A stretch of 64,000 bases of DNA from a virus. Lineage: Duplodnaviria; Caudoviricetes. A program made the position numbers and the translations under genes. Every line of letters begins with the position of its first letter. Position 1 is the first letter of the stretch. Shown piece after piece: positions 50,063 to 64,000 of this stretch. The DNA lies in IMG/VR virus record IMGVR_UViG_3300042542_006078; one strand, written 5' to 3'. The notes below the pieces were generated by a model, which saw nothing but the letters and a program-made list of their open reading frames with translations, ran no database searches and had not been told where the DNA came from.

Positions 50063-53000
50063 TTAGCTGGATGCGCTTTCTTTCCACTTCTCCCAGAACC
50101 TTGTGTTACTAATCATTTCTTGATAAGTGTGCTTGGCAAATCGCCTGTTCAAACGACCTTTTCTAATTCCTGATATTCTTACCACTATTTCAACTTGCTT
50201 GTTCTTCAGGTCTTCTCCAATAGCCTCAACAACCAAAGAATTCTTGGAAATGTAAGCCCCAACCAAAACTGGTGATGAACCAACTGCGCTTGTCACCTTG
50301 ATAGTGTCTTTTTCACAAACCTGTATGAATCTGTCATCAAGGAATGTCAAAATTGTATCACGATCAAGGCCACTTCCTCCAACCTTTACTACCATAATGT
50401 CTTCAAACCTTACCTCTGGCATCTCAACGCAAATTAGTTCGACATATTCCTCATAACCTTGTGATGTTACAACTGGAAGAATCGCATACTTGTCTCCCTG
50501 TGATCCTTGTGATCCCTGTGATCCCTGTGATCCCTGTGCGCCCGCAGAGCCTTGAAGACCACCAGAAGAACCTTGGTAGCCAGATTGTCCCTGTGCGCCC
50601 GCAGAGCCTTGAGACCCACTAAACCCATTTTGACCTTGATAACCAATATTCCCCGGATTTCCCTGATATCCAACAGCGGGAGGCATAACAAGAATATTCA
50701 AATTTTGATTATTTGAAGGAAGAGCTAAAGAACCAGAAACCAAACCAACAGGAACTACCCAATAACCACCAGCAGAAGATGGAAAATTGGTAACTTGATA
50801 AACATAAATTATACTTCCGCTACCATTTTCTTGAATATAAATGTAAGAGCCATAAGTTCCTCCTACAACAGGATAAATGAAAAGATTACCAATAATACTG
50901 TTTAAGTTATTACCAAAAACATCTAAGTTATCAATGTAAATTTGAGAGACTGCGGATGGATCAGAAGGATGGTTAAATCTCAAATATCCTTGACCGGGAT
51001 CAGAGTTTGTAGTCGATGTGCTAAACTGATACTTGATTCCACCCTTGTCTCCAAGACTACCCTGATTGCCCTGATTTCCCTGATTGCCTTGCGATCCTTG
51101 AAATCCTTGTAAACCAATTGAACCTTTAGGAGCAAACATGATGCTCAATGACTGACCATTTGTGGGAACTGTACCAGATAATCCAGAAACAGGGATCTTG
51201 TAATATCCAGCAGCAACTATAATTGTTCCAACTACAGTAAATGTGACTATAGTATTGCCAGCATCATTTCCAGCAACATAAATGTATCCAGCATATCCAT
51301 CTAAAATACTATAATTCAGATCAAATGTTGTAATCCATCCAGCTTGATTAATGCTATTTGCATCTGTATTGCTAATGTATATGAATAAAATACTTGGAAT
51401 GGAAGCATTGCTAAATCTAACATATCCACTACCGGGATTTGTATCGCTTACTAAATTGCTAAATGTATACTTTACGCCGCCTTTATCACCAATTCCTTGA
51501 TTGCCCTGATTTCCTTGAGCGCCCTGAAATCCTTGAAATCCAATATTACCTTGATATCCTTGAAGTCCTTGAAGACCTTGATGGCCTTGGAATCCATCAG
51601 CAGGGCCTTGGAATCCTTGATTTCCTTGGTTGCCTTGAGCGCCTTGGAATCCATCAGGAGTTCCTTGATAACCTTGCTGACCTTGGTTTCCTTGATTACC
51701 TTGTTCTCCCTGATGACCTTGCTGACCTTGATTGCCCTGATTTCCCTGATGTCCTTGATATCCGTCAGCAGGGCCTTGGAATCCTTGATTGCCTTGGTTT
51801 CCTTGGTGACCCTGATTTCCTTGATTGCCTTGGTTTCCTTGGTGACCCTGATTTCCTTGATTGCCTTGGAATCCTTGATCGCCTTGGTTTCCTTGGCGAC
51901 CTTGATTGCCTTGGTTTCCCTGATTGCCTTGGTTTCCTTGACGACCTTGGTTTCCTTGGTTTCCCTGATTGCCTTGGTTTCCTTGACGACCTTGGTTTCC
52001 TTGACGACCTTGGTTTCCTTGATACCCTTGATAGCCACCACCTTGATATCCTTGTGATCCTTGATATCCTTGTTGTCCTTGATAACCCTGATATCCTTGT
52101 TGTCCTTGATATCCTTGTTGTCCTTGATATCCTTGTTGTCCTTGATAACCCTGATATCCTTGTGATCCTTGGTATCCTTGTGATCCTTGGTTTCCTTGGT
52201 TTCCTTGGTTGCCTTGGTTTCCTTGACTTCCCTGATTTCCCTGTTGTCCTTGAAGTCCTTGATAACCTTGATATCCTTGTTGTCCTTGGTATCCTTGGTA
52301 TGCTTGATAGCCTTGATATCCTTGAAAACCCGATGATCCCGATGATCCTGCTAGACCTTGGTATCCAAGATCTCCTTGATAACCAATGTTTCCTTGATTT
52401 CCCTGATTTCCTTGTTGCCCTTGATATCCAATTAGTCCTTGAAGACCAATAAAACCTTGGTTTCCTTGGTTTCCTTGGTTTCCTTGGTTTCCTTGATTTC
52501 CTTGATTTCCTTGGATGCCTTGTGGTCCTGCATTTCCTTGATATCCTTGTTCTCCAAGAATGCCTTGTGGTCCTAAAGGACCAGCAATTCCTTGGGGTCC
52601 AGTTATACCTGTCTGACCTATAAGACCCTGTTCTCCCTGTTCGCCTTGCTCTCCCTGAGGGCCTTGACTTCCTGTTGAGCCTTGTCTTCCTTGATTTCCT
52701 TGCGATCCTTGGTTTCCTTGTGTTCCTTGATATCCAATATTTCCTTGATAACCAATTAGCCCTTGATTTCCTTGTTGTCCTTGGTTTCCTTGGTTTCCTT
52801 GTGATCCTTGATATCCAATATCTCCTTGATATCCTTGATCTCCCTGATTTCCTTGTCTGCCCTGATTTCCTTGGTTACCTTGATTGCCTTGGCGACCTTG
52901 ATTTCCTTGCGATCCTTGCAGGCCAATATCTCCTTGATATCCTTGTTCGCCTTGATTTCCTTGTTCGCCCTGATATCCTTGATCTCCTTGTCTTCCTTGC

Positions 53001-53938
53001 CTTCCCTGTCTTCCTTGGTTGCCTTGCGATCCCTGCGATCCTGTATCGCCTTGTGATCCAGTTAATCCCTGAATGCCTTGATATCCTTGTAAACCAAAAT
53101 CACCTTGATTTCCTTGTAAACCAATTTGGCCTTGATAGCCAATTTGGCCTTGATGGCCTTGGCGACCTTGATTTCCCTGTCGTCCTTGGTTTCCTTGAAC
53201 TCCCTGTAGACCTAAAATTCCTTGGTATCCTTGTCTTCCTTGGAATCCCTGAAGTCCTGTTGTTCCTTGATTGCCTTGTAATCCTGTTCCAATAGAGCCC
53301 TGTAGGCCTTGAACTCCTGTTATTCCTTGGTTTCCTTGACTGCCAGATGTTCCTTGGAATCCTTGATTGCCTCTTCCTCCTTGCAATCCTTGAAGTCCAG
53401 TCGCTCCTTGAACACCTTGTGCGCCATCTCCTCCTTGGTTGCCCTGACTACCTTGAAATCCTGCTCCAATTACACCTTGGAAACCTTGATTGCCTTGCTC
53501 GCCCTGATATCCAGCACCTTGAGTTCCTTGATTGCCTTGATTTCCTTGAATGCCTTGTAGACCTTGATTTCCTTGTTCTCCTTGCTCTCCTTGGTATCCT
53601 GCTGGTGTTCCTTGATAACCAACAATTCCTTGCAATCCTTGAAGACCAACTACACCTTGGCGACCTTGATTTCCTTGGTTTCCTTGTGATCCTTGTACTG
53701 TGCTTGGCGAACCTTGGGCTCCTTGTGATCCTGCTCTTCCCTGTTGGCCTTGTAGACCTTGTGATCCGGGTGTGCCTTGCGAACCTTGAGGGCCTGTTAT
53801 ATCTTGTCCAATATTTGCAGAAACAACAAAATCACGCAAATCTTGTGCTGAAATGCCACCTTGATTGTTATCGGCAAATATGCACAATAACTCCTCTTCG
53901 GTCCTGAAAGTTCCAGATTGGTTGCATTGATTTGCCAT
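50063..53938 (-). CDS. Collagen-like fibre protein (Gly-X-Gln), with two inserted globular domains
   Basis: Long G-X-Q triplet tract; two GDKGG[VI]KY-F domains; C-terminal [11 protein letters not shown] domain. Confidence 0.85.
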   Translation of the reverse strand: MANQCNQSGTFRTEEELLCIFADNNQGGISAQDLRDFVVSANIGQDITGPQGSQGTPGSQGLQGQQGRAGSQGAQGSPSTVQGSQGNQGNQGRQGVVGLQGLQGIVGYQGTPAGYQGEQGEQGNQGLQGIQGNQGNQGTQGAGYQGEQGNQGFQGVIGAGFQGSQGNQGGDGAQGVQGATGLQGLQGGRGNQGFQGTSGSQGNQGITGVQGLQGSIGTGLQGNQGTTGLQGFQGRQGYQGILGLQGVQGNQGRQGNQGRQGHQGQIGYQGQIGLQGNQGDFGLQGYQGIQGLTGSQGDTGSQGSQGNQGRQGRQGRQGDQGYQGEQGNQGEQGYQGDIGLQGSQGNQGRQGNQGNQGNQGRQGNQGDQGYQGDIGYQGSQGNQGNQGQQGNQGLIGYQGNIGYQGTQGNQGSQGNQGRQGSTGSQGPQGEQGEQGEQGLIGQTGITGPQGIAGPLGPQGILGEQGYQGNAGPQGIQGNQGNQGNQGNQGNQGNQGFIGLQGLIGYQGQQGNQGNQGNIGYQGDLGYQGLAGSSGSSGFQGYQGYQAYQGYQGQQGYQGYQGLQGQQGNQGSQGNQGNQGNQGNQGSQGYQGSQGYQGYQGQQGYQGQQGYQGQQGYQGYQGQQGYQGSQGYQGGGYQGYQGNQGRQGNQGRQGNQGNQGNQGNQGRQGNQGNQGNQGNQGRQGNQGDQGFQGNQGNQGHQGNQGNQGNQGHQGNQGNQGFQGPADGYQGHQGNQGNQGQQGHQGEQGNQGNQGQQGYQGTPDGFQGAQGNQGNQGFQGPADGFQGHQGLQGLQGYQGNIGFQGFQGAQGNQGNQGIGDKGGVKYTFSNLVSDTNPGSGYVRFSNASIPSILFIYISNTDANSINQAGWITTFDLNYSILDGYAGYIYVAGNDAGNTIVTFTVVGTIIVAAGYYKIPVSGLSGTVPTNGQSLSIMFAPKGSIGLQGFQGSQGNQGNQGNQGSLGDKGGIKYQFSTSTTNSDPGQGYLRFNHPSDPSAVSQIYIDNLDVFGNNLNSIIGNLFIYPVVGGTYGSYIYIQENGSGSIIYVYQVTNFPSSAGGYWVVPVGLVSGSLALPSNNQNLNILVMPPAVGYQGNPGNIGYQGQNGFSGSQGSAGAQGQSGYQGSSGGLQGSAGAQGSQGSQGSQGSQGDKYAILPVVTSQGYEEYVELICVEMPEVRFEDIMVVKVGGSGLDRDTILTFLDDRFIQVCEKDTIKVTSAVGSSPVLVGAYISKNSLVVEAIGEDLKNKQVEIVVRISGIRKGRLNRRFAKHTYQEMISNTRFWEKWKESASS

Positions 53939-53952
53939 CTTAGATTCCCTGT

Positions 53953-56289
53953 TTATTTCCAGCTATTCCAGAAATTGTTGTTCTTAATCATTTCTTCGTA
54001 AGTGTGAGTAAAGAATCGTCCTTTGACACCAATTCTTATTCCAGATAATCTCAATATTACTTTTACTTTTTCATTTTCAAGAAAATCACCATGAGCCTCG
54101 ATTAATACTTTGTCGCCATTAACATCTACTCCTGCCGATATAGGTTTTGATGTTACTATTCCAGTAACAATAATTGAGTCTTGTTCACAAACCTTGATAA
54201 ACTTTTCTTCAATTTGATGACTTTCCTTGATTACATTAGTTCCATTTCCACCTATATGAATAATCATGATGTCTTCAAATCTTACTTCTGGCATCTCGAC
54301 ACATGACAAAGCAACATACTCTTCATTGTCTTCGTAGCGAAGAGTAATAATTGCATTTTTCACACCAGCCGGACCTTGCGATCCTGTTGGCCCCTGATAT
54401 CCTGCTCGTCCTTGGCGACCTTGTACTCCCGCAATTCCTTGTCTTCCTTGAATTCCTTGTCTTCCTTGGTGTCCCTGATTTCCTTGTAATCCTTGTAATC
54501 CTTGACGGCCTTGAAATCCTTGACGGCCCTGATTGCCTTGATAGCCTTGGTTGCCTTGGTTGCCTTGATTTCCTTGATTTCCTTGATTTCCTTGATTTCC
54601 TTGACGACCCTGATTTCCTTGACGACCCTGATTTCCTTGATTTCCTTGACGGCCTTGATTTCCTTGATTGCCTTGATTTCCTTGATTTCCTTGACGACCT
54701 TGGTTTCCCTGATTTCCCTGATTTCCTTGATTTCCTTGGAATCCTTGATTTCCTTGATTTCCCTGATTTCCCTGATTTCCTTGGTTGCCTTGGTTGCCTT
54801 GGTTACCTTGGTTACCTTGGTTGCCTTGGTGGCCTTGATTTCCCTGCTCTCCTTGACGACCTTGGTTTCCTTGATTGCCTTGGTTACCTTGATTGCCTTG
54901 GCGACCTTGATTGCCTTGATGGCCTTGGTTGCCTTGGTTCCCCTGATTTCCTTGGTTGCCTTGACGACCTTGATTACCTTGACGACCTTGATGGCCTTGG
55001 TTGCCTTGGTTTCCTTGGTTTCCTTGATATCCTTGTGGACCTTGATTTCCTTGACGGCCTTGATTTCCTTGATTTCCTTGACGGCCTTGGTTGCCTTGGT
55101 TTCCTTGGTATCCTTGTGGACCTTGATTACCTTGATTTCCTTGGCGACCTTGATTACCTTGATTTCCTTGGCGACCTTGATTGCCTTGGCTACCTTGGTT
55201 TCCAATAAATCCTTGAAGACCAATAAGACCTTGGTTGCCTTGATTTCCTTGATTGCCTTGTATTCCTTGTCTTCCTTGATATCCTTGTCTTCCTTGATGC
55301 CCTTGTCTTCCTTGATATCCTTGATCTCCCTGACTTCCTTGTGGTCCAGCCGATCCAACAACTCCTTGTCTTCCTTGAGATCCTTGTTGTCCCAAAACGC
55401 CTTGACGGCCTTGGCTACCTTGTATTCCTTGTCTACCTTGAAAACCCTGACTACCTTGTCTTCCTTGGTGTCCTTGATATCCCTGTTCGCCTTGATTTCC
55501 TTGGTTTCCTTGTGAGCCTTGATTTCCTTGGTTTCCTTGTGAGCCTTGAAATCCTGCGCCCTGAAAACCTTGATATCCTCCAACTGTCCCTTGAAATCCA
55601 ATTGATCCTTGTCTTCCTTGTGATCCTTGATTGCCCTGAGATCCAGTTCCTTGATAACCTTGAAAACCTCTGAATCCGGCAGAACCTTGTCTTCCTTGAT
55701 TGCCTTGTACTCCTTGCGCTCCTTTTCCTCCTAATGAACCTTGAAGTCCTTGAAGACCTTGTAGTCCCTGAGCGCCATCATATCCCTGATATCCTTGATT
55801 TCCTTGGAATCCAGCACCTTGGACACCTTGATTTCCTTGTTGTCCTTGTACTCCAATATTTCCTTGAAGACCTTGAAGACCTTGAAGACCAAATCCTTGA
55901 AGACCTTGATTTCCTTGCTCTCCCTGTTCGCCCTGATATCCAGCAGGAGTGCCTTGAAAACCAAGAATTCCTTGAAGGCCTTGAAGGCCAACTATTCCTT
56001 GGTTTCCTTGTATACCTTGGTTTCCTTGATTTCCTTGTGGACCCGGCACAATACTTGGATCACCTTGGGCTCCTTGTGATCCTGCTCTTCCCTGTTGGCC
56101 TTGCAGGCCTTGCGATCCGTGGGCACCTTGTGATCCTTGTGGACCTGTTATATCTTGTCCGACATTCGCAGAAACAACAAAATCACGCAAATCTTGCGCT
56201 GAAATACCGCCTTGGTTGTTATCAGCAAATATGCACAATAACTCCTCTTCGGTTCTTAAAGTTCCAGATTGATTACATTGATTTGCCAT
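53953..56289 (-). CDS. Collagen-like fibre protein (Gly-X-Gln), paralog
   Basis: Near-identical N-terminus [10 protein letters not shown]..., (GNQ/GRQ)n tract, same [12 protein letters not shown]-terminal domain. Confidence 0.85.
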
Positions 56290-59486: not shown

Positions 59487-60311
59487 ATGATTGATATTCA
59501 GATTGACGAAGAAAAATTGAAATTTAATTTCATGTCTCCTTTATATGAATATTTTTTAGTATTTGATAACTATAAATATTATTGTTATAATAGACAAGAA
59601 TTAGATGAAAAATTAAAAAATAAAAATGTTATTACAAGATTGATTATTCACAATTCATATTGTGTGGCTTTATTTACAAATGCAGAACATTTTAATTGTG
59701 CAGAATTCCGTGATTTTTTGCAGGCTATTGTGAACAAAGTGCCTTTTTTCGCCGAATATGAACTTGTTGGTCTTAATCAAAACTTTGGGACAATTGAAGA
59801 ATATCTTCAAAATAAAATAACCAAGTTGGAAGAATTAGAATTTCTATATCATGGAACATCATCTTATTATGCTGATATTATTCTAAAAGAAGGAATTAAA
59901 CCGAGAAAACATACTAATGTTTCGGCTTCTTTCGCAGGAACAAATGAAGAAGGTAGCCCGAATTGCATTTATCTATGCACACATCCAAGATATGGATTGA
60001 AGAGGGCAGGAGCGGCAGCAATGAGAAAATCAAATGGAGAAAACACTCTTCTAAAAATAGACATTGCTGGTATTGATAAATCAAAATTAAAATGTTGCGA
60101 TCAAATAAATAAAAATGATATATCAATTGAAGAAAGTCTTTTGATAAGCAAAAATTTGCGTTATTTTGGAACAATTGAGCCAAATTATATTACAAATGAA
60201 GGCATTATTCCCTATAATCTTCTTAATATTAAGGCCATGCAATACTATGCCTCAAAAGAAAACAATGATCTAAATCGTGCAAGCACAGATTCATCGATGC
60301 AAGGCAAGTAA
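59487..60311 (+). CDS. Protein with C-terminal ADP-ribosyltransferase-fold-like domain
   Basis: FLYHGTS...ILKEGIKP...IYLCT...LLKID pattern. Confidence 0.5.
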   Translation: MIDIQIDEEKLKFNFMSPLYEYFLVFDNYKYYCYNRQELDEKLKNKNVITRLIIHNSYCVALFTNAEHFNCAEFRDFLQAIVNKVPFFAEYELVGLNQNFGTIEEYLQNKITKLEELEFLYHGTSSYYADIILKEGIKPRKHTNVSASFAGTNEEGSPNCIYLCTHPRYGLKRAGAAAMRKSNGENTLLKIDIAGIDKSKLKCCDQINKNDISIEESLLISKNLRYFGTIEPNYITNEGIIPYNLLNIKAMQYYASKENNDLNRASTDSSMQGK

Positions 60312-60934
60312 ACATTCAGGTCAAAATTAATTTTCTTGTAGTCTTCTTCCGTGAATAGTTTTTTCACGAAAGGACTTATTGCAAGATAATATGGAGAAAT
60401 CTTACCAAGATTGATCCATCTGAATATATTGTTGTTGATATATGATTCCTTATACTTATCAAAATTCACATCAGGTCCAAATGTCTTAACAATAAATTCT
60501 TTGGTCTTCTCAATACCTTCCAAAGCTTTTTGTATACCAACTCCAGTAACCTCAACCGTGTCCTTAGGATTATTTCTGACCTGATCGTATTTTTTCTTCC
60601 AAAGCTTCCATCTTTTCCAAGCCTTTTCTCCCACCAAACAATTTGGATCAATCAATGGATGATCATTATCACGGTTGATAGCTTTAAGAATATCAAGCTG
60701 GGCTCTGATATAAAGAGGATATTCTTCTTTGGTCAGAATACCATTTGTTTCACGAACTAACTTATAAGCAATTTTGAATATAAGTGATTTGCGTGGATCG
60801 CCTTTTTTCATAGTGGCGTGACGATAGTCTGGAAATTTTTTGCGACTCTGTTCGAGCCACATTGAAGCTATATGGCAAGCCTGAGTTTCAAGCTCATCCA
60901 TCTCATACTTCTCAGCAGACTCGATGATCCACAT
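60245..60934 (-). CDS. Hypothetical protein
   Basis: Likely start MWIIES at 60934 after AGAGGA. Confidence 0.65.
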   Translation of the reverse strand: MWIIESAEKYEMDELETQACHIASMWLEQSRKKFPDYRHATMKKGDPRKSLIFKIAYKLVRETNGILTKEEYPLYIRAQLDILKAINRDNDHPLIDPNCLVGEKAWKRWKLWKKKYDQVRNNPKDTVEVTGVGIQKALEGIEKTKEFIVKTFGPDVNFDKYKESYINNNIFRWINLGKISPYYLAISPFVKKLFTEEDYKKINFDLNVYLPCIDESVLARFRSLFSFEA

Positions 60935-61004
60935 GAAATTTTCCTCTTTTTTTTCGTGCTTCATCATACTCCTATACCTCAAGCGACTCAAGGTTATTTA
61001 TCCC

Positions 61005-61892
61005 ATGAAAATTGCAATGTGCCCACTAGTAAGCAGAGATCTTCCAAAAGCTATCAGAGCAACCAATTCTTGTAGAAATCAATTTCCAACTGAACAATTT
61101 CAAGTTGAAACAGTTGCAATTGTTAACTCAAAGAATCAAGAATTCATAGATGAGTTCTGCTCATGGTGCGAATCTGAACAAGTAAAATATGTCATTACTG
61201 AATCAAATGGAACACCAAGCAGAGGAAAAAATAGCGTTCTTCAGTTTCTTAGAGACTCGGACTATGACGGAGTAAGCATGACAGATGGAGATGATTTAGT
61301 CTATCCAACTGGAGCTTTGCAAATTGAAAGACATCTTCTTCACCATCCAACCACAGATGTTTTGATAGTTAAGCCTTCTGATCAAGTTACAAACCATGAA
61401 TCATATGGAAGTGTTCAAATTAAAGAAGGAAACTATGCTGTTTGTTGGGGTATGAATATTGTTAAGTTGGGATATACTTATGGTCCCGGTAAAAGCGAAA
61501 TATTTAATTCAGGACATTTTGCAGCAAGAAATTTAGGAGGACATGTTTTTTATAGCAAGAAGGTTGCACAACTTGTTCAATATGATGAAGAACAATTGTT
61601 GGGAGAAGACTTGCTTTTAGAATTTAATCTTCTCAAGCTTCATCAAGAAAGAAAAATATGTTTTTGGTTAAGTTTTGCAAGTGATGTACAGATGCTAGAC
61701 AGAACTGAGCAAGAAAGTATTCAATATACAAAGAATGGAACAGATGGGGCTCAATCTTTTGAAAGGTTAATTCAAAAAGTGAGAGAGATATTGCCTGAAG
61801 ACAGAAGTTCATTTGATGAATTGCCCGTAGAGTTCCCAGAATTGTTATTTTCACATGGCGAAAAAATTGAATGGTTGAAGCAAGTTTTTTGA
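61005..61892 (+). CDS. GT-A fold glycosyltransferase-like protein
   Basis: ESNGTPSRGKNS, DGDD (DxD), GEDLL; start MKIAMC at 61005. Confidence 0.65.
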   Translation: MKIAMCPLVSRDLPKAIRATNSCRNQFPTEQFQVETVAIVNSKNQEFIDEFCSWCESEQVKYVITESNGTPSRGKNSVLQFLRDSDYDGVSMTDGDDLVYPTGALQIERHLLHHPTTDVLIVKPSDQVTNHESYGSVQIKEGNYAVCWGMNIVKLGYTYGPGKSEIFNSGHFAARNLGGHVFYSKKVAQLVQYDEEQLLGEDLLLEFNLLKLHQERKICFWLSFASDVQMLDRTEQESIQYTKNGTDGAQSFERLIQKVREILPEDRSSFDELPVEFPELLFSHGEKIEWLKQVF

Positions 61893-61899
61893 AAATTGA

Positions 61900-61928
61900 T
61901 TGCAAAAAAGAATCTAAGTGATTACAAT
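61900..61928 (+). promoter_or_regulatory. Putative sigma70 promoter driving the non-coding region
   Basis: TTGCAA (61900-05)-17 nt-TACAAT (61923-28). Confidence 0.65.
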
Positions 61929-61934
61929 AAGAAA

Positions 61935-62447
61935 TGGCTAAGGGTAATTCTCACTCATTCCGCTCACAAGGTGTTATGAGTTAAGCCCAAAGCAAAGACA
62001 GAAGAAGGTTTCGCACTTAAAGACTTTCATCGTGATTGTCGCCTTTAATGTCTTTGTTGTCAAACCTGCGAGGCCCTTACCAAGGGTGGGTCTTTGTAGT
62101 TGTTCTACAACGAATGCTTTAACGGGAAGCATTGTACTCGCAGCAGCAGAGGTCAAGCCGGATAGAAATGATGCTGACTCTCAAGAAAAACCCCTGTAGT
62201 TTGTTTTGCAAAAAGCAAATGAGAAATGGAAAATTCTTGAGCTATTCGGTTTTAGGTTTGCTGCAAATAAAAGTGCGCCATCTGACTCAATCCCAAGAAG
62301 TTATTGCTGGAGTAAATAGGTTTAGTAAACAAGAATATGGCTTAAACGCCAAAAAATTGCTCTACTAAACAAGTTTACTCAATATCTCACTTTTAATGTG
62401 ATATATACAGCAATAACCATTTGGGTCAGCATCCCGTTCTAGTTTTT
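61935..62447 (+). ncRNA. Large structured non-coding RNA candidate (about 510 nt), class unknown
   Basis: No convincing ORF; upstream promoter; more than a dozen nested helices whose G-U pairs favour the plus strand; T run at 62443-47. Details under findings. Confidence 0.65.
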
Positions 62448-62507
62448 GATTGTAAATAAAAAAAACAAATTACCTAAATTAACAAATTTTTGCATAATTT
62501 AACATGA

Positions 62508-62536
62508 TTGACCTAACTGCTTTTTTCGGCTATAAC
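62508..62536 (+). promoter_or_regulatory. Putative sigma70 promoter for the polymerase gene
   Basis: TTGACC (62508-13)-17 nt-TATAAC (62531-36). Confidence 0.7.
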
Positions 62537-62597
62537 CTGACGAAGAATTAGCCTTCACTCACAGAGTGACGGAAAATGGCCTACAAGCTGGTGATTC

Positions 62598-63935
62598 ATG
62601 TATTTTGACTCTTTGTCCAAGTTGCTCTGTCAAATCGAGCGTAAGCCCCTTTTCTTGCGATTTAATCCCACTCCTTTTGATTTCACGGACAAGGATTCAG
62701 TCAATGAGATGCAATTCTTTCTTCCTGATGGTGTCACATTTCAAATTTTGCTCAAGGATGAATCTTTGCCTTTGGTTTTGAGTATGTTGCAGTTGTCTGT
62801 TTTTTCTGGCGACAACAAAGTCTTCGCATGGGATTGGAAATCATTTATTTCACATGTTCTTGCAAAGACTGGCAAGTTATATTCTATTGAATCATCTGTT
62901 GTTGATCTTAAGATTTTAGAAAGTTACAACGGAATCAAGAAATCATGTCCTGAGACATTTGTTGAGTGTTTTAACAGAATAAAGTATTTGGTATCATCTG
63001 GTCTATGGAAAGACTGTGAAAATATTTACAAGAAGATTCATTTGCCTTTGATGACAAATGTCATTCCTTATTTGGAAACAGTAGGCATTCTTGACTTGAA
63101 TGCTGGCAAGAAGGTTCATGCTCATTATGAGATTGATGGTCAGGAGAATGGCAGATTAAGATGTCACAATGCTTTTAAGAATGGTTTTGTGCCACATGCA
63201 ATGGGATCGGATATCAAGGAGAAGTTGAAGCCTGTCGGCTATGATTCTCTTTTCATGGCTTTTGATTACAAGGGCATGGAAGCGTTTGTTCTTGCCTATT
63301 TGAGCAAAGACGAAAGGTTGATGAGTTTTTGTCAGGAAGAGGACATTTATGCTTCTTTGGCAAAGTCATTATTTGGATCGAATTCTGAAAAAATTGATCG
63401 TGAATTGGTGAAAAAATGTTTTTTGCCGGTTATATATGGACAGTCGGCCCGTTCTCTTTCTTTGCGTTGCGGAATGGCTGCTGATGTCGCAGAAGGCGTT
63501 GTGGAACGAATTAGTTCTTTGTTCAATACTGCGCTTTCATTCGTTGCTGATTGTGAAGAAAAAGTAAAACAAAATGGATTTGCCAAAGATGTTTTTGGTA
63601 AAAGAAGAAACAACTTTGAGTTAGGCAAGGAATATTTAGCCAGAAACTTTGCTGTGCAATCACCCGCATCAACGATATGTCTTGAGAAACTTATCAATCT
63701 TCATATTTCCATACAAAACTTAAATCAAAGCTTGAAGGATAAGGCTCAAATTTCTTATACTGTTCATGACGGTTATGTTTTGTATGTTACGAAGGATAAT
63801 TGGAAACAAGTTTACAAGAGAAGTATGGAAGCATTGTGCGGAGAATCCGAGCTTTGTCCCGGTCTGCGACTGAAGGTTTCATGTCGTGGAGGGAGAAACC
63901 TGAATGACCTGAAAATGATTAAAGATCGAAAGTGA
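62598..63935 (+). CDS. Divergent family A DNA polymerase, apparently lacking the thumb
   Basis: NGRL, motif A FDYKGMEA, motif B RELVKKCFLPVIYG, GKRR, NFAVQSPAS, motif C TVHDG. Confidence 0.85.
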   Translation: MYFDSLSKLLCQIERKPLFLRFNPTPFDFTDKDSVNEMQFFLPDGVTFQILLKDESLPLVLSMLQLSVFSGDNKVFAWDWKSFISHVLAKTGKLYSIESSVVDLKILESYNGIKKSCPETFVECFNRIKYLVSSGLWKDCENIYKKIHLPLMTNVIPYLETVGILDLNAGKKVHAHYEIDGQENGRLRCHNAFKNGFVPHAMGSDIKEKLKPVGYDSLFMAFDYKGMEAFVLAYLSKDERLMSFCQEEDIYASLAKSLFGSNSEKIDRELVKKCFLPVIYGQSARSLSLRCGMAADVAEGVVERISSLFNTALSFVADCEEKVKQNGFAKDVFGKRRNNFELGKEYLARNFAVQSPASTICLEKLINLHISIQNLNQSLKDKAQISYTVHDGYVLYVTKDNWKQVYKRSMEALCGESELCPGLRLKVSCRGGRNLNDLKMIKDRK

Positions 63936-63943
63936 AGGAAAAA

Positions 63944-64000
63944 ATGATTGAGATTGTTCACAATTTTCCGATAACAGAAGAAGAATTTTTGGACCTTGAC
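63944..64000 (+). CDS. Start of next gene (3'-truncated by window)
   Basis: SD AAGGA, then MIEIVHNFPITEEEFLDLD. Confidence 0.5.
   Translation, partial: MIEIVHNFPITEEEFLDLD

Follow-up and report, generated by a model that had tools for sequence, protein, structure and literature searches.

It is close to certain that the DNA analysed here (a stretch of 64,000 nucleotides, referred to as the window) encodes a real, conserved and compactly folded RNA on its + strand, just upstream of a family-A DNA polymerase gene. Our best reading, held with slightly better than even confidence, is that positions 61935-62462 are the gene of a stand-alone, trans-acting non-coding RNA that belongs to no class described so far. 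The RNA appears to represent a new class of large, structured molecules linked to DNA replication in phages. An earlier note, made from the letters alone, had proposed a large, promoter-driven, multi-domain and pseudoknotted RNA of no known class on the plus strand; homologs, covariation and blank Rfam and ARAGORN scans bear this out, and all sequence words quoted in that note were recovered at their positions.

Genomic setting and distribution

The RNA gene lies in 705 bases without a plausible gene, between a 322-aa open reading frame (ORF) and the polymerase gene (polA). The elements of the locus are as follows.

60924-61892: unannotated ORF of 322 aa, the upstream neighbour of the RNA gene
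61900-61928, + strand: sigma-70-like promoter TTGCAA-17-TACAAT, with a predicted start near 61935
61935-62462, + strand: predicted non-coding RNA (about 530 nt here), a block bounded by the promoter and the GAUUGUAAA motif
62463-62597, + strand: spacer of low conservation (A+T about 67% between the 3' tail and the polA start codon)
62479-62508, + strand: candidate polA promoter TTAACA-18-CATGAT
62598-63935, + strand: family-A DNA polymerase gene of 445 aa (Pfam DNA_pol_A, 5.3e-30; aligns to Taq residues 559-821)

On its 3' side polA is followed by a 183-aa gene of no assigned function and then by a DnaB-like helicase gene. All homologs of the RNA are found upstream of polA in the same orientation, making polA the invariable downstream neighbour. 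The upstream neighbour differs among lineages and can even be on the opposite strand (L002 and L003), but the linkage between RNA and polA is constant.

The source is an uncultured huge phage of fresh waters, given that the sole near-full-length match of the polymerase among GenBank phages is a 595-kb "uncultured phage" (LR756511.1, 33% identity), that related contigs are as large as 225-460 kb and that several studies of lake water and fresh water supplied the metagenomic DNA runs containing the stretch. At the nucleotide level, blastn of the region against 50,697 GenBank phage records yielded no match. The nearest virus record among those searched (G001, sharing 38% of the window's sampled words) also has no match to the region, this record being a 35-kb fragment with an estimated completeness of 8%.

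The RNA was found upstream of the same polymerase (about 440 aa) in 28 distinct lineages of huge phages plus one further locus (L129), and the carrier phages come from lakes and other waters. A 19-nt word of hairpin H2 used as query retrieved 11 IMG/VR contigs, a degenerate pattern of hairpin H3 together with an nhmmer screen added four more, and alignment of the polymerase (A3) gave 33 viral and 47 metagenomic loci. Removal of near-duplicates left 44 distinct upstream regions, and iterative nhmmer searches placed the element in 31 of these. The collection of homologs upstream of the polymerase, proposed in the earlier note, gave 28 lineages and L129. Matches obtained with the patterns were all located on polymerase-carrying contigs, with one copy per locus around polA, and 185,579 prokaryote species genomes searched with a specific pattern gave no match.

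A covariance model of the D2 hairpin and the four-way junction (R1, 148 positions; alignment A6) scores 44-128 bits on the 28 distinct sequences searched, its own seeds included. L129, a scaffold of a MAG labelled Neisseriaceae, was retrieved later via its polymerase and stands outside model building; here R1 reaches 86 bits (E = 2e-16). Conservation of the RNA can exceed that of its neighbour: between the window and L062 the junction domain has a nucleotide conservation of 0.82 against 0.62 for polA, the RNA being the higher of the two in groups A and B, and one 19-nt RNA word is identical where the polymerase proteins are only 55% identical.

The distribution has clear borders. The element was not detected beside polymerases of at most 41% identity, nor in group D (L063, L066 and L067), where R1 gave no real match on L063 with the filters switched off. 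At the equivalent site group D has a different structured stretch (z -5.2). The element was likewise not detected in LR756511.1, in which a 387-aa ORF abuts polA. This ORF has no Pfam, PHROG or PDB kin and is not homologous to the ORF upstream of the RNA in the window.

Promoter, fold and long-range pairings

The promoter that the earlier note had pointed out is present, and in 22 of 27 lineages a promoter scoring at least 9 out of 12 is located just 5' of the first conserved element. Two lineages (L050 and L059) have perfect ones (12/12), with TTGACA and TATAAT at a spacing of 17 and 16 nt, respectively. From the predicted start to PK1 the core measures about 350-490 nt among lineages, the window being the longest. 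A coding role finds no support: no frame is open across the element, the longest stop-to-stop frames (39-125 aa) differ among 28 homologs, and length differences between homologs are not multiples of three.

Folding energy was compared with dinucleotide shuffles, as the earlier note had suggested. On the + strand, positions 61930-62450 fold at -162.2 kcal/mol against -124.7 +/- 6.5 for the shuffled sequences (z -5.75), and the - strand reaches z -4.12. In the R1 alignment 49 cells hold G-U against 23 that hold A-C. The + strand is favoured because of this excess of G-U and its better z-score, in line with the strand preference expressed before.

RNAalifold on divergent MAFFT alignments returned empty or near-empty structures because loop lengths differ; it was replaced by hand-written structures, alignment to the covariance model and anchored counts. 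The resulting domains (D1 to D5) and long-range pairings (PK1 to PK3) are listed below.

61939-61992, + strand: D1, a 5' hairpin (ACTCAT 61953 / ATGAGT 61976), an insertion relative to the closest relatives and present in this lineage only
61993-62056, + strand: D2 hairpin, with P2a (61993-62000/62049-62056) and P2b (62005-62008/62042-62045); stems differ but stay complementary
62062-62143, + strand: conserved linker AAACCUG and four-way junction (model R1, alignment A6)
62065-62072/62137-62143, + strand: closing stem of the junction
62072-62089, 62092-62110 and 62113-62133, + strand: junction hairpins H1, H2 and H3
62123-62126, + strand: PK1 5' strand CGGG, part of the H3 loop and complementary to CCCG 62433-62436
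62143-62264, + strand: D4 long hairpin, with P4a (62143-62149/62259-62264), P4b (62157-62165/62242-62250) and P4c (62180-62187/62234-62241)
62150-62156/62251-62258, + strand: conserved internal loop of D4, AGGUCAA / UUUAGGUU
62171-62180, + strand: PK2 5' strand AUGCUGACUC, a D4 bulge sequence complementary to GGGUCAGCAU 62423-62432
62188-62233, + strand: D4 apex, a window-specific insertion
62272-62277, + strand: PK3 3' strand AGUGCG, located in the conserved linker AAAGUGCGCC and base-paired to the D2 loop 62012-62017
62300-62417, + strand: D5 three-way domain, with outer stem 62300-62309/62408-62417 and second hairpin 62382-62404
62310-62380, + strand: D5 long hairpin, with cap GGCUUAAACGCC at 62339-62350
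62423-62437, + strand: 3' tail, holding the 3' strands of PK2 (62423-62432) and PK1 (62433-62437)
62443-62462, + strand: tentative 3' element, with the conserved word GAUUGUAAA (62448-62456) and a short A/U stem UUUUU/AAAAA

The four-way junction with its three hairpins, already described in the earlier note, is well supported by covariation. In the 28-sequence R1 alignment, where the count takes in P2b of D2 as well, compensatory changes occur in 21 of 26 pairs, and 85.8% of the cells are paired against 71.5% after shuffling (none of 500 shuffles reaches any of the measures) and about 42% after displacing the partners by 1-3 columns. For D2 the helices read before (AGGTTT 62006/AAACCT 62062 and AAAGAC 62019/GTCTTT 62050) are not conserved, and a different hairpin is conserved instead, formed by CAAAGACA 61993 / TGTCTTTG 62049 together with AAGG 62005 / CCTT 62042. 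In relatives the D2 stems are wholly different yet complementary (e.g. UUUGGCA/UGCUGAA and UUCAAC/GUUGA). The loop contains the word CGCACT (62012-62017), which is the PK3 5' strand, and a window-specific insert (62018-62040).

In D4 the two lower helices covary heavily on both sides of an internal loop that is invariant among lineages (AGGUNAN / UUUAGGNN). Helix 62143/62259 averages 5.9 bp with its own partner against 4.0 bp with partners taken from other sequences, and for helix 62157/62242 these values are 7.7 and 4.8 bp. The upper helix proposed at 62180/62234 covaries in a 4-sequence fold only. D5 shows compensatory changes in 32 of 41 pairs on a structure-blind alignment, with observed values that are reached in 0 of 500 shuffles; its architecture is the same in groups A and B (based on single-sequence folds) and smaller in group C. 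The proposed helices 62300/62408, 62310/62373 and 62320/62363 covary, as does a capping hairpin, and only the outermost one (62282/62421) is absent from relatives. At the 5' end, the hairpin 61953/61976 exists in the window's lineage but alignments show it to be missing from relatives; most other lineages have a different 5' domain, consisting of a GNRA-capped hairpin followed by ACUGAGA and a hairpin. Some lineages would allow ACUGAGA to pair with the 3' tail, but those with CCCGGU have mismatches there, and this pairing is not claimed.

Both long-range contacts put forward in the earlier note (62122/62433 and 62171/62423) covary and belong to the best-supported pairs of the molecule. For PK1 the H3 loop (CRRG) and the 3' tail (CYYG) are complementary in 28 of 28 sequences (112 of 112 cells; 0 of 10000 permutations), through the variants CGGG/CCCG (n=11), CGAG/CUCG (n=8), CAGG/CCUG (n=1) and CAAG/CUUG (n=8). 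The PK2 bulge is situated 37-44 nt past H3 and its partner in the tail immediately 5' of PK1, except for two lineages (L088 and L101) where the partner is displaced. Covarying variants of PK2 include AUGCUGAC/GUCAGCAU, GGCUGA/UCAGCC, UGCAGA/UCUGCA, GGUUUU/AGAACC and GCCG/CGGC.

A third contact (PK3), missed before, joins the D2 loop (CGUACU) to AGUACG in the conserved linker between D4 and D5 (AAAGUACGC). Over 28 sequences 156 of 168 cells are paired (0 of 10000 permutations), with GUAC, GCAC/GUGC (the window), GUGC/GCAC, GCGC, AUGC/GCAU, GUAUC/GAUAC and GUACC/GGUAC as variants. In L129 the sequence holds complementary words for all three knots, as predicted: PK1 by CAGG/CCUG, PK2 by UGCCGACU/AGUCGGCA and PK3 by UGUACU/AGUACA. 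The earlier note had also suggested a switch between two folds. The competing helix (62282/62421) has no counterpart in relatives, and its rival contact (62171/62423) covaries in nearly all lineages; since the helix is not conserved, a conserved two-state switch is not supported.

Expression, 3' boundary and relation to polA

In two lake metatranscriptomes, which stem from different studies, one contig apiece (220 and 205 nt) matches the window at 100% identity. These contigs span 61974/61975 to 62178/62194, and nothing else from 59500-64000 is present in either, against a comparison DNA run that covers this whole interval. The contigs were found by searching the present stretch in low-depth assemblies, which give no strand, ends or level, and DNA carry-over is a possible source. 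We take the pattern as a weak hint that the RNA outlasts or outnumbers the neighbouring mRNAs. The shared start at 61974/61975 was considered as an RNA processing site and rejected: the contigs end where window-specific insertions have their borders, which makes assembly branch points the probable explanation. One further run (X22) has no contig on the window stretch and no RNA library is listed for the commonest relative (L051); both count neither way.

Past the 3' tail, the word GAUUGUA(A/C)A is conserved across groups A to C, flanked by weak stems of 4-7 bp that vary among lineages, and the element may, tentatively, be a terminal hairpin. Some lineages, but not that of the window, have a palindrome as their 3' loop word (UUGUACAA). 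The 3' word (GATTGTAAA) was also considered as a promoter or operator motif used throughout the genome and rejected, with 54 matches in the window against 52 expected by chance.

It might be argued that there is no functional RNA at all and that the conservation reflects signals in the DNA (protein-binding sites or DNA hairpins) or an overlooked small protein gene. The 3' word would fit such signals, as GATTGTA(A/C)A is conserved as a sequence and forms part of a DNA palindrome in group C (TATGATTGTACAATCATA). Nonetheless, dozens of compensatory changes (also over long range), the excess of G-U over A-C pairs, the 5' promoters, the RNA-library contigs and the lack of a conserved frame leave this explanation with an almost negligible probability.

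Between the RNA and polA the spacer is unconserved, with a length of about 60-230 nt among lineages. A simple scan recognises a second sigma-70-like promoter in this spacer in 14 of 27 lineages and none in the remaining 13. In three lineages (L062, L087 and L093) 6-7 nt separate the end of its -10 box from the polA start codon, and the polA mRNA would therefore be leaderless, with the RNA excluded from it. Most lineages have no strong intrinsic terminator between RNA and polA and none is conserved; a rare clear case, a hairpin and then a run of T, is seen in group C (L077).

In many lineages polA is preceded by a separate promoter located past the RNA, so that the RNA can hardly be a mere polymerase leader. 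A 5' leader of the polA-helicase replication operon, acting in cis by sensing a protein (e.g. the polymerase) or a metabolite and controlling read-through or translation of polA, is rather unlikely but keeps some weight because terminators are weak and adjacency is absolute. As expected of a cis element, the RNA is positioned immediately upstream of polA and co-oriented in every homolog; read-through into polA is possible in the many lineages lacking a clear terminator, and the 13 lineages without a recognisable second promoter would also fit. A protein acting on its own message has a precedent in phage T4, where gp43 binds its own mRNA operator. What is not seen is an expression platform, given the variable spacer, the lack of a conserved terminator and the internal polA promoter of 14 of 27 lineages; conservation of RNA elements ends short of the ribosome-binding site and no riboswitch family matches. 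Moreover, about 500 nt and three knots far exceed known leaders and riboswitches.

An origin transcript was also considered, in which the RNA would run into the A+T-rich spacer, form an RNA-DNA hybrid and be extended by the family-A polymerase. Parallels are ColE1 RNA II with Pol I, the primary origin of T7 and oriF and oriG of T4. The position of the RNA at the head of a replication module, beside a family-A polymerase and a DnaB-like helicase, is in agreement with this, as are the base composition of the spacer (67% A+T in the window) and a minimum of the cumulative GC skew at 56-58 kb, a few kb upstream. However, the skew minimum is not specific because it coincides with a switch in gene orientation, and the spacer, the would-be unwinding element, is not conserved. 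Selection has also maintained a compact fold held by three covarying helices of long range, a feature superfluous for a primer, and no antisense promoter is conserved (a match on the - strand at 62063-62035 is specific to the window). We regard this explanation as improbable.

A stand-alone RNA acting in trans is the reading that best accommodates an unconserved spacer, polA promoters separate from that of the RNA and a molecule far larger and more knotted than known leaders; independence is further indicated by the 5' promoter found in most lineages, many of which have a second one for polA. The RNA gene has a sigma-70-type promoter at its 5' end, and strong evidence supports a fold made of the D2 hairpin, the four-way junction, the D4 hairpin and the three-way D5, tied together by PK1, PK2 and PK3. 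The RNA would be made together with the replication genes (polA, the 183-aa gene and the DnaB-like helicase) and most likely acts in trans; our best guess is a ribonucleoprotein component or an RNA-only scaffold of the replication module.

A bolder proposal, which we consider doubtful, makes the RNA a functional subunit of the replicase, with the unusually small polymerase (about 440 aa, without an exonuclease domain) working as a ribonucleoprotein. In that case the RNA could serve as a scaffold for processivity or positioning, as an initiator primer or as a template. If true, a family-A DNA polymerase holoenzyme that depends on RNA would be described for the first time, as a polymerase counterpart of telomerase, retron or DRT-type RNA-enzyme pairs.

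Comparison with known RNA families and systems

The proposed scan of Rfam was done with release 15 (4227 models, including GOLLD, ROOL, OLE, HEARO, raiA, RNase P, tmRNA, introns and riboswitches). At the gathering score there are no matches in the whole window, and up to E = 10 the region 61800-62700 only gives three chance-level matches (E 0.6-9, to snoRNA and miRNA models). Eight homolog loci searched at E <= 1 have none either, in agreement with the earlier claim that no known class is involved. The earlier note saw no tRNA or tmRNA motifs, and ARAGORN indeed reports neither in the 64-kb window; the tRNA-like domain formed by the ends and the tag frame that define a tmRNA are not found, with no T-loop or CCA-type 3' end visible. 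A hammerhead-like reading of GAAAC...CUGAGA was rejected, as its elements are in the wrong order and no Rfam match exists.

These results bear on the idea that a known catalytic or mobile RNA (a group I or II intron, RNase P, tmRNA or a GOLLD- or ROOL-type RNA) has diverged or decayed into the present one. Like GOLLD and ROOL it is large, pseudoknotted and phage-borne, and group I introns occur in the polymerase genes of phages such as SPO1 (according to the annotation of GenBank matches). With blank scans by Rfam (window to E = 10, eight homolog loci to E = 1) and ARAGORN the idea is highly improbable. An intron in particular is contradicted by the intergenic location, the own promoter and the upstream neighbour, which varies and can be on the opposite strand; downstream, polA is complete.

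About a dozen classes of large (>400 nt), intricately folded non-coding RNA are known from bacteria and phages. Among these, rRNA, RNase P, group I and II introns, tmRNA, OLE, GOLLD, ROOL and HEARO are proven or suspected to be catalytic, protein-partnered or self-assembling. The polA-linked RNA adds a well-supported class, in which three covarying pseudoknots are combined with a four-way junction and two other domains of several helices, so far confined to uncultured huge phages of fresh waters and genetically locked to a replicative polymerase. It is a target for structural biology of about 160 kDa for which an alignment is ready, and it poses the question why the replication module of a giant phage would need a large folded RNA.

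Similar in overall character are GOLLD (RF01998) and ROOL (RF03087), which are alike in size class (about 500-800 nt), in having many helices and pseudoknots, in being phage-borne and in forming their own transcription unit. GOLLD was first noticed in lake metagenomes. Both are usually found near tRNA genes, unlike the polA-linked RNA, which is locked to a family-A polymerase in a window without tRNA and has no sequence or structure match to them. GOLLD and ROOL form RNA-only multimers (Kretsch et al., Nature 2025, PMC12286853).

In gene arrangement the similarity is rather with HEARO/omega RNA and IscB, with retron msr-msd and with the non-coding RNA and reverse transcriptase of DRT2 and DRT9. 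In these systems, too, an RNA gene is placed directly 5' of, and co-oriented with, a nucleic-acid enzyme, and RNA and enzyme stay paired while other neighbours change. The enzyme here differs, being a family-A DNA polymerase in a replication module instead of a reverse transcriptase or nuclease, and the likeness is one of arrangement only; no guide, template or branch features were identified. ColE1 RNA II and the origin transcripts of T7 and T4 share with the polA-linked RNA a promoter-driven transcript of about 0.5 kb, a family-A polymerase and A+T-rich DNA that follows; these primers are not, however, conserved as compact, multiply knotted folds across distant relatives, and neither an origin signature nor an antisense partner was found for the polA-linked RNA.

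Finally, about 10,000 short candidate phage RNAs have been catalogued, including ones upstream of replication genes, with an average length of 67 nt (Fremin et al. 2023, PMC10690425). The polA-linked RNA is not described in Rfam 15 or in the literature searched, although this catalogue may contain fragments of it. The operators of T4 genes 43 and 32 and the catalogued candidates (PMC10690425) are similar in that a structured RNA is located just upstream of a phage replication gene. They measure tens of nucleotides and overlap the ribosome-binding site, whereas the polA-linked RNA is about 500 nt long and leaves 60-230 nt between its end and the start codon.

Variation within the RNA and its spacer

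In most homologs, the 5' domain of the non-coding RNA upstream of the family-A DNA polymerase gene (polA) consists of a GNRA-capped hairpin followed by GAAACUUU, an invariant ACUGAGA and a further hairpin (for instance L062:1952-2020 and L077:1950-2020; L-numbers denote homologous loci, each with its own coordinates). All of these elements are absent from the window's clade, in which the promoter lies further downstream. ACUGAG could pair with CUYGGU in the 3' tail in some lineages. Insertions specific to the window lineage are located as follows.

Insertions in the RNA found in the window lineage only (window coordinates)
61939-61992: 5' end of the RNA
62018-62040: loop of hairpin domain D2
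62188-62233: apex of hairpin domain D4

Evidently, extra hairpins are tolerated at these positions. A promoter-like site (TTGACA-17-GACAAT, 10/12) is also present on the minus strand at 62063-62035, antisense within D2. Since relatives show TTGGCA in place of TTGACA, the word is not conserved and the site is probably due to chance.

The spacer between the RNA and polA (window equivalent 62463-62597) contains a sigma-70-like promoter in L062, L087 and L093. Because 6-7 nt separate the end of its -10 box from the start codon of polA, the sequence implies that polymerase mRNAs are leaderless in some lineages.

Other occupants of the site

At L063:1830-2420, and also in L066 and L067, another non-coding stretch, ~600 nt long, stands where the RNA gene would be expected. 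These are sister lineages whose polA is 52% identical, and their contigs reach 462 kb. The L063 stretch folds far better than its shuffles (z -5.2) and gives no match to R1, the 148-position covariance model of the D2 hairpin and the four-way junction; the sole element it has in common with the RNA is a D4-like word, AGGTCATCGCTG. The L063-type stretch may represent a replaced or strongly remodelled RNA.

In a distant relative, the 595-kb uncultured phage LR756511.1, a 387-aa ORF occupies the site (L004:2802-3965), its stop overlapping the start of polA. This ORF has zero matches in Pfam, PHROG and PDB, and its relatives are found only in other phages, of 630-735 kb.

Host question and upstream genes

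Among 185,579 species genomes the sole match was L129:995-1340 (RXKI01000130.1), a scaffold of the MAG 'Neisseriaceae bacterium AWTP1-37'. On this 13-kb scaffold, polA (48% identity) is accompanied by the RNA, complete with its three long-range knots. The scaffold either gives a clue to the host or is phage DNA put in the wrong bin.

A few kb upstream of the RNA, at 50063-56289 on the minus strand, lies a pair of large genes with collagen repeats (1291 and 778 aa), and the cumulative GC skew of the window turns just past them, at 56-58 kb. The 322-aa ORF upstream of the RNA (60924-61892) matches neither Pfam nor PHROG families; in its language-model features it is similar to GT2 glycosyltransferases of viruses (the Atlas version of the protein comprises residue 28 onward only).
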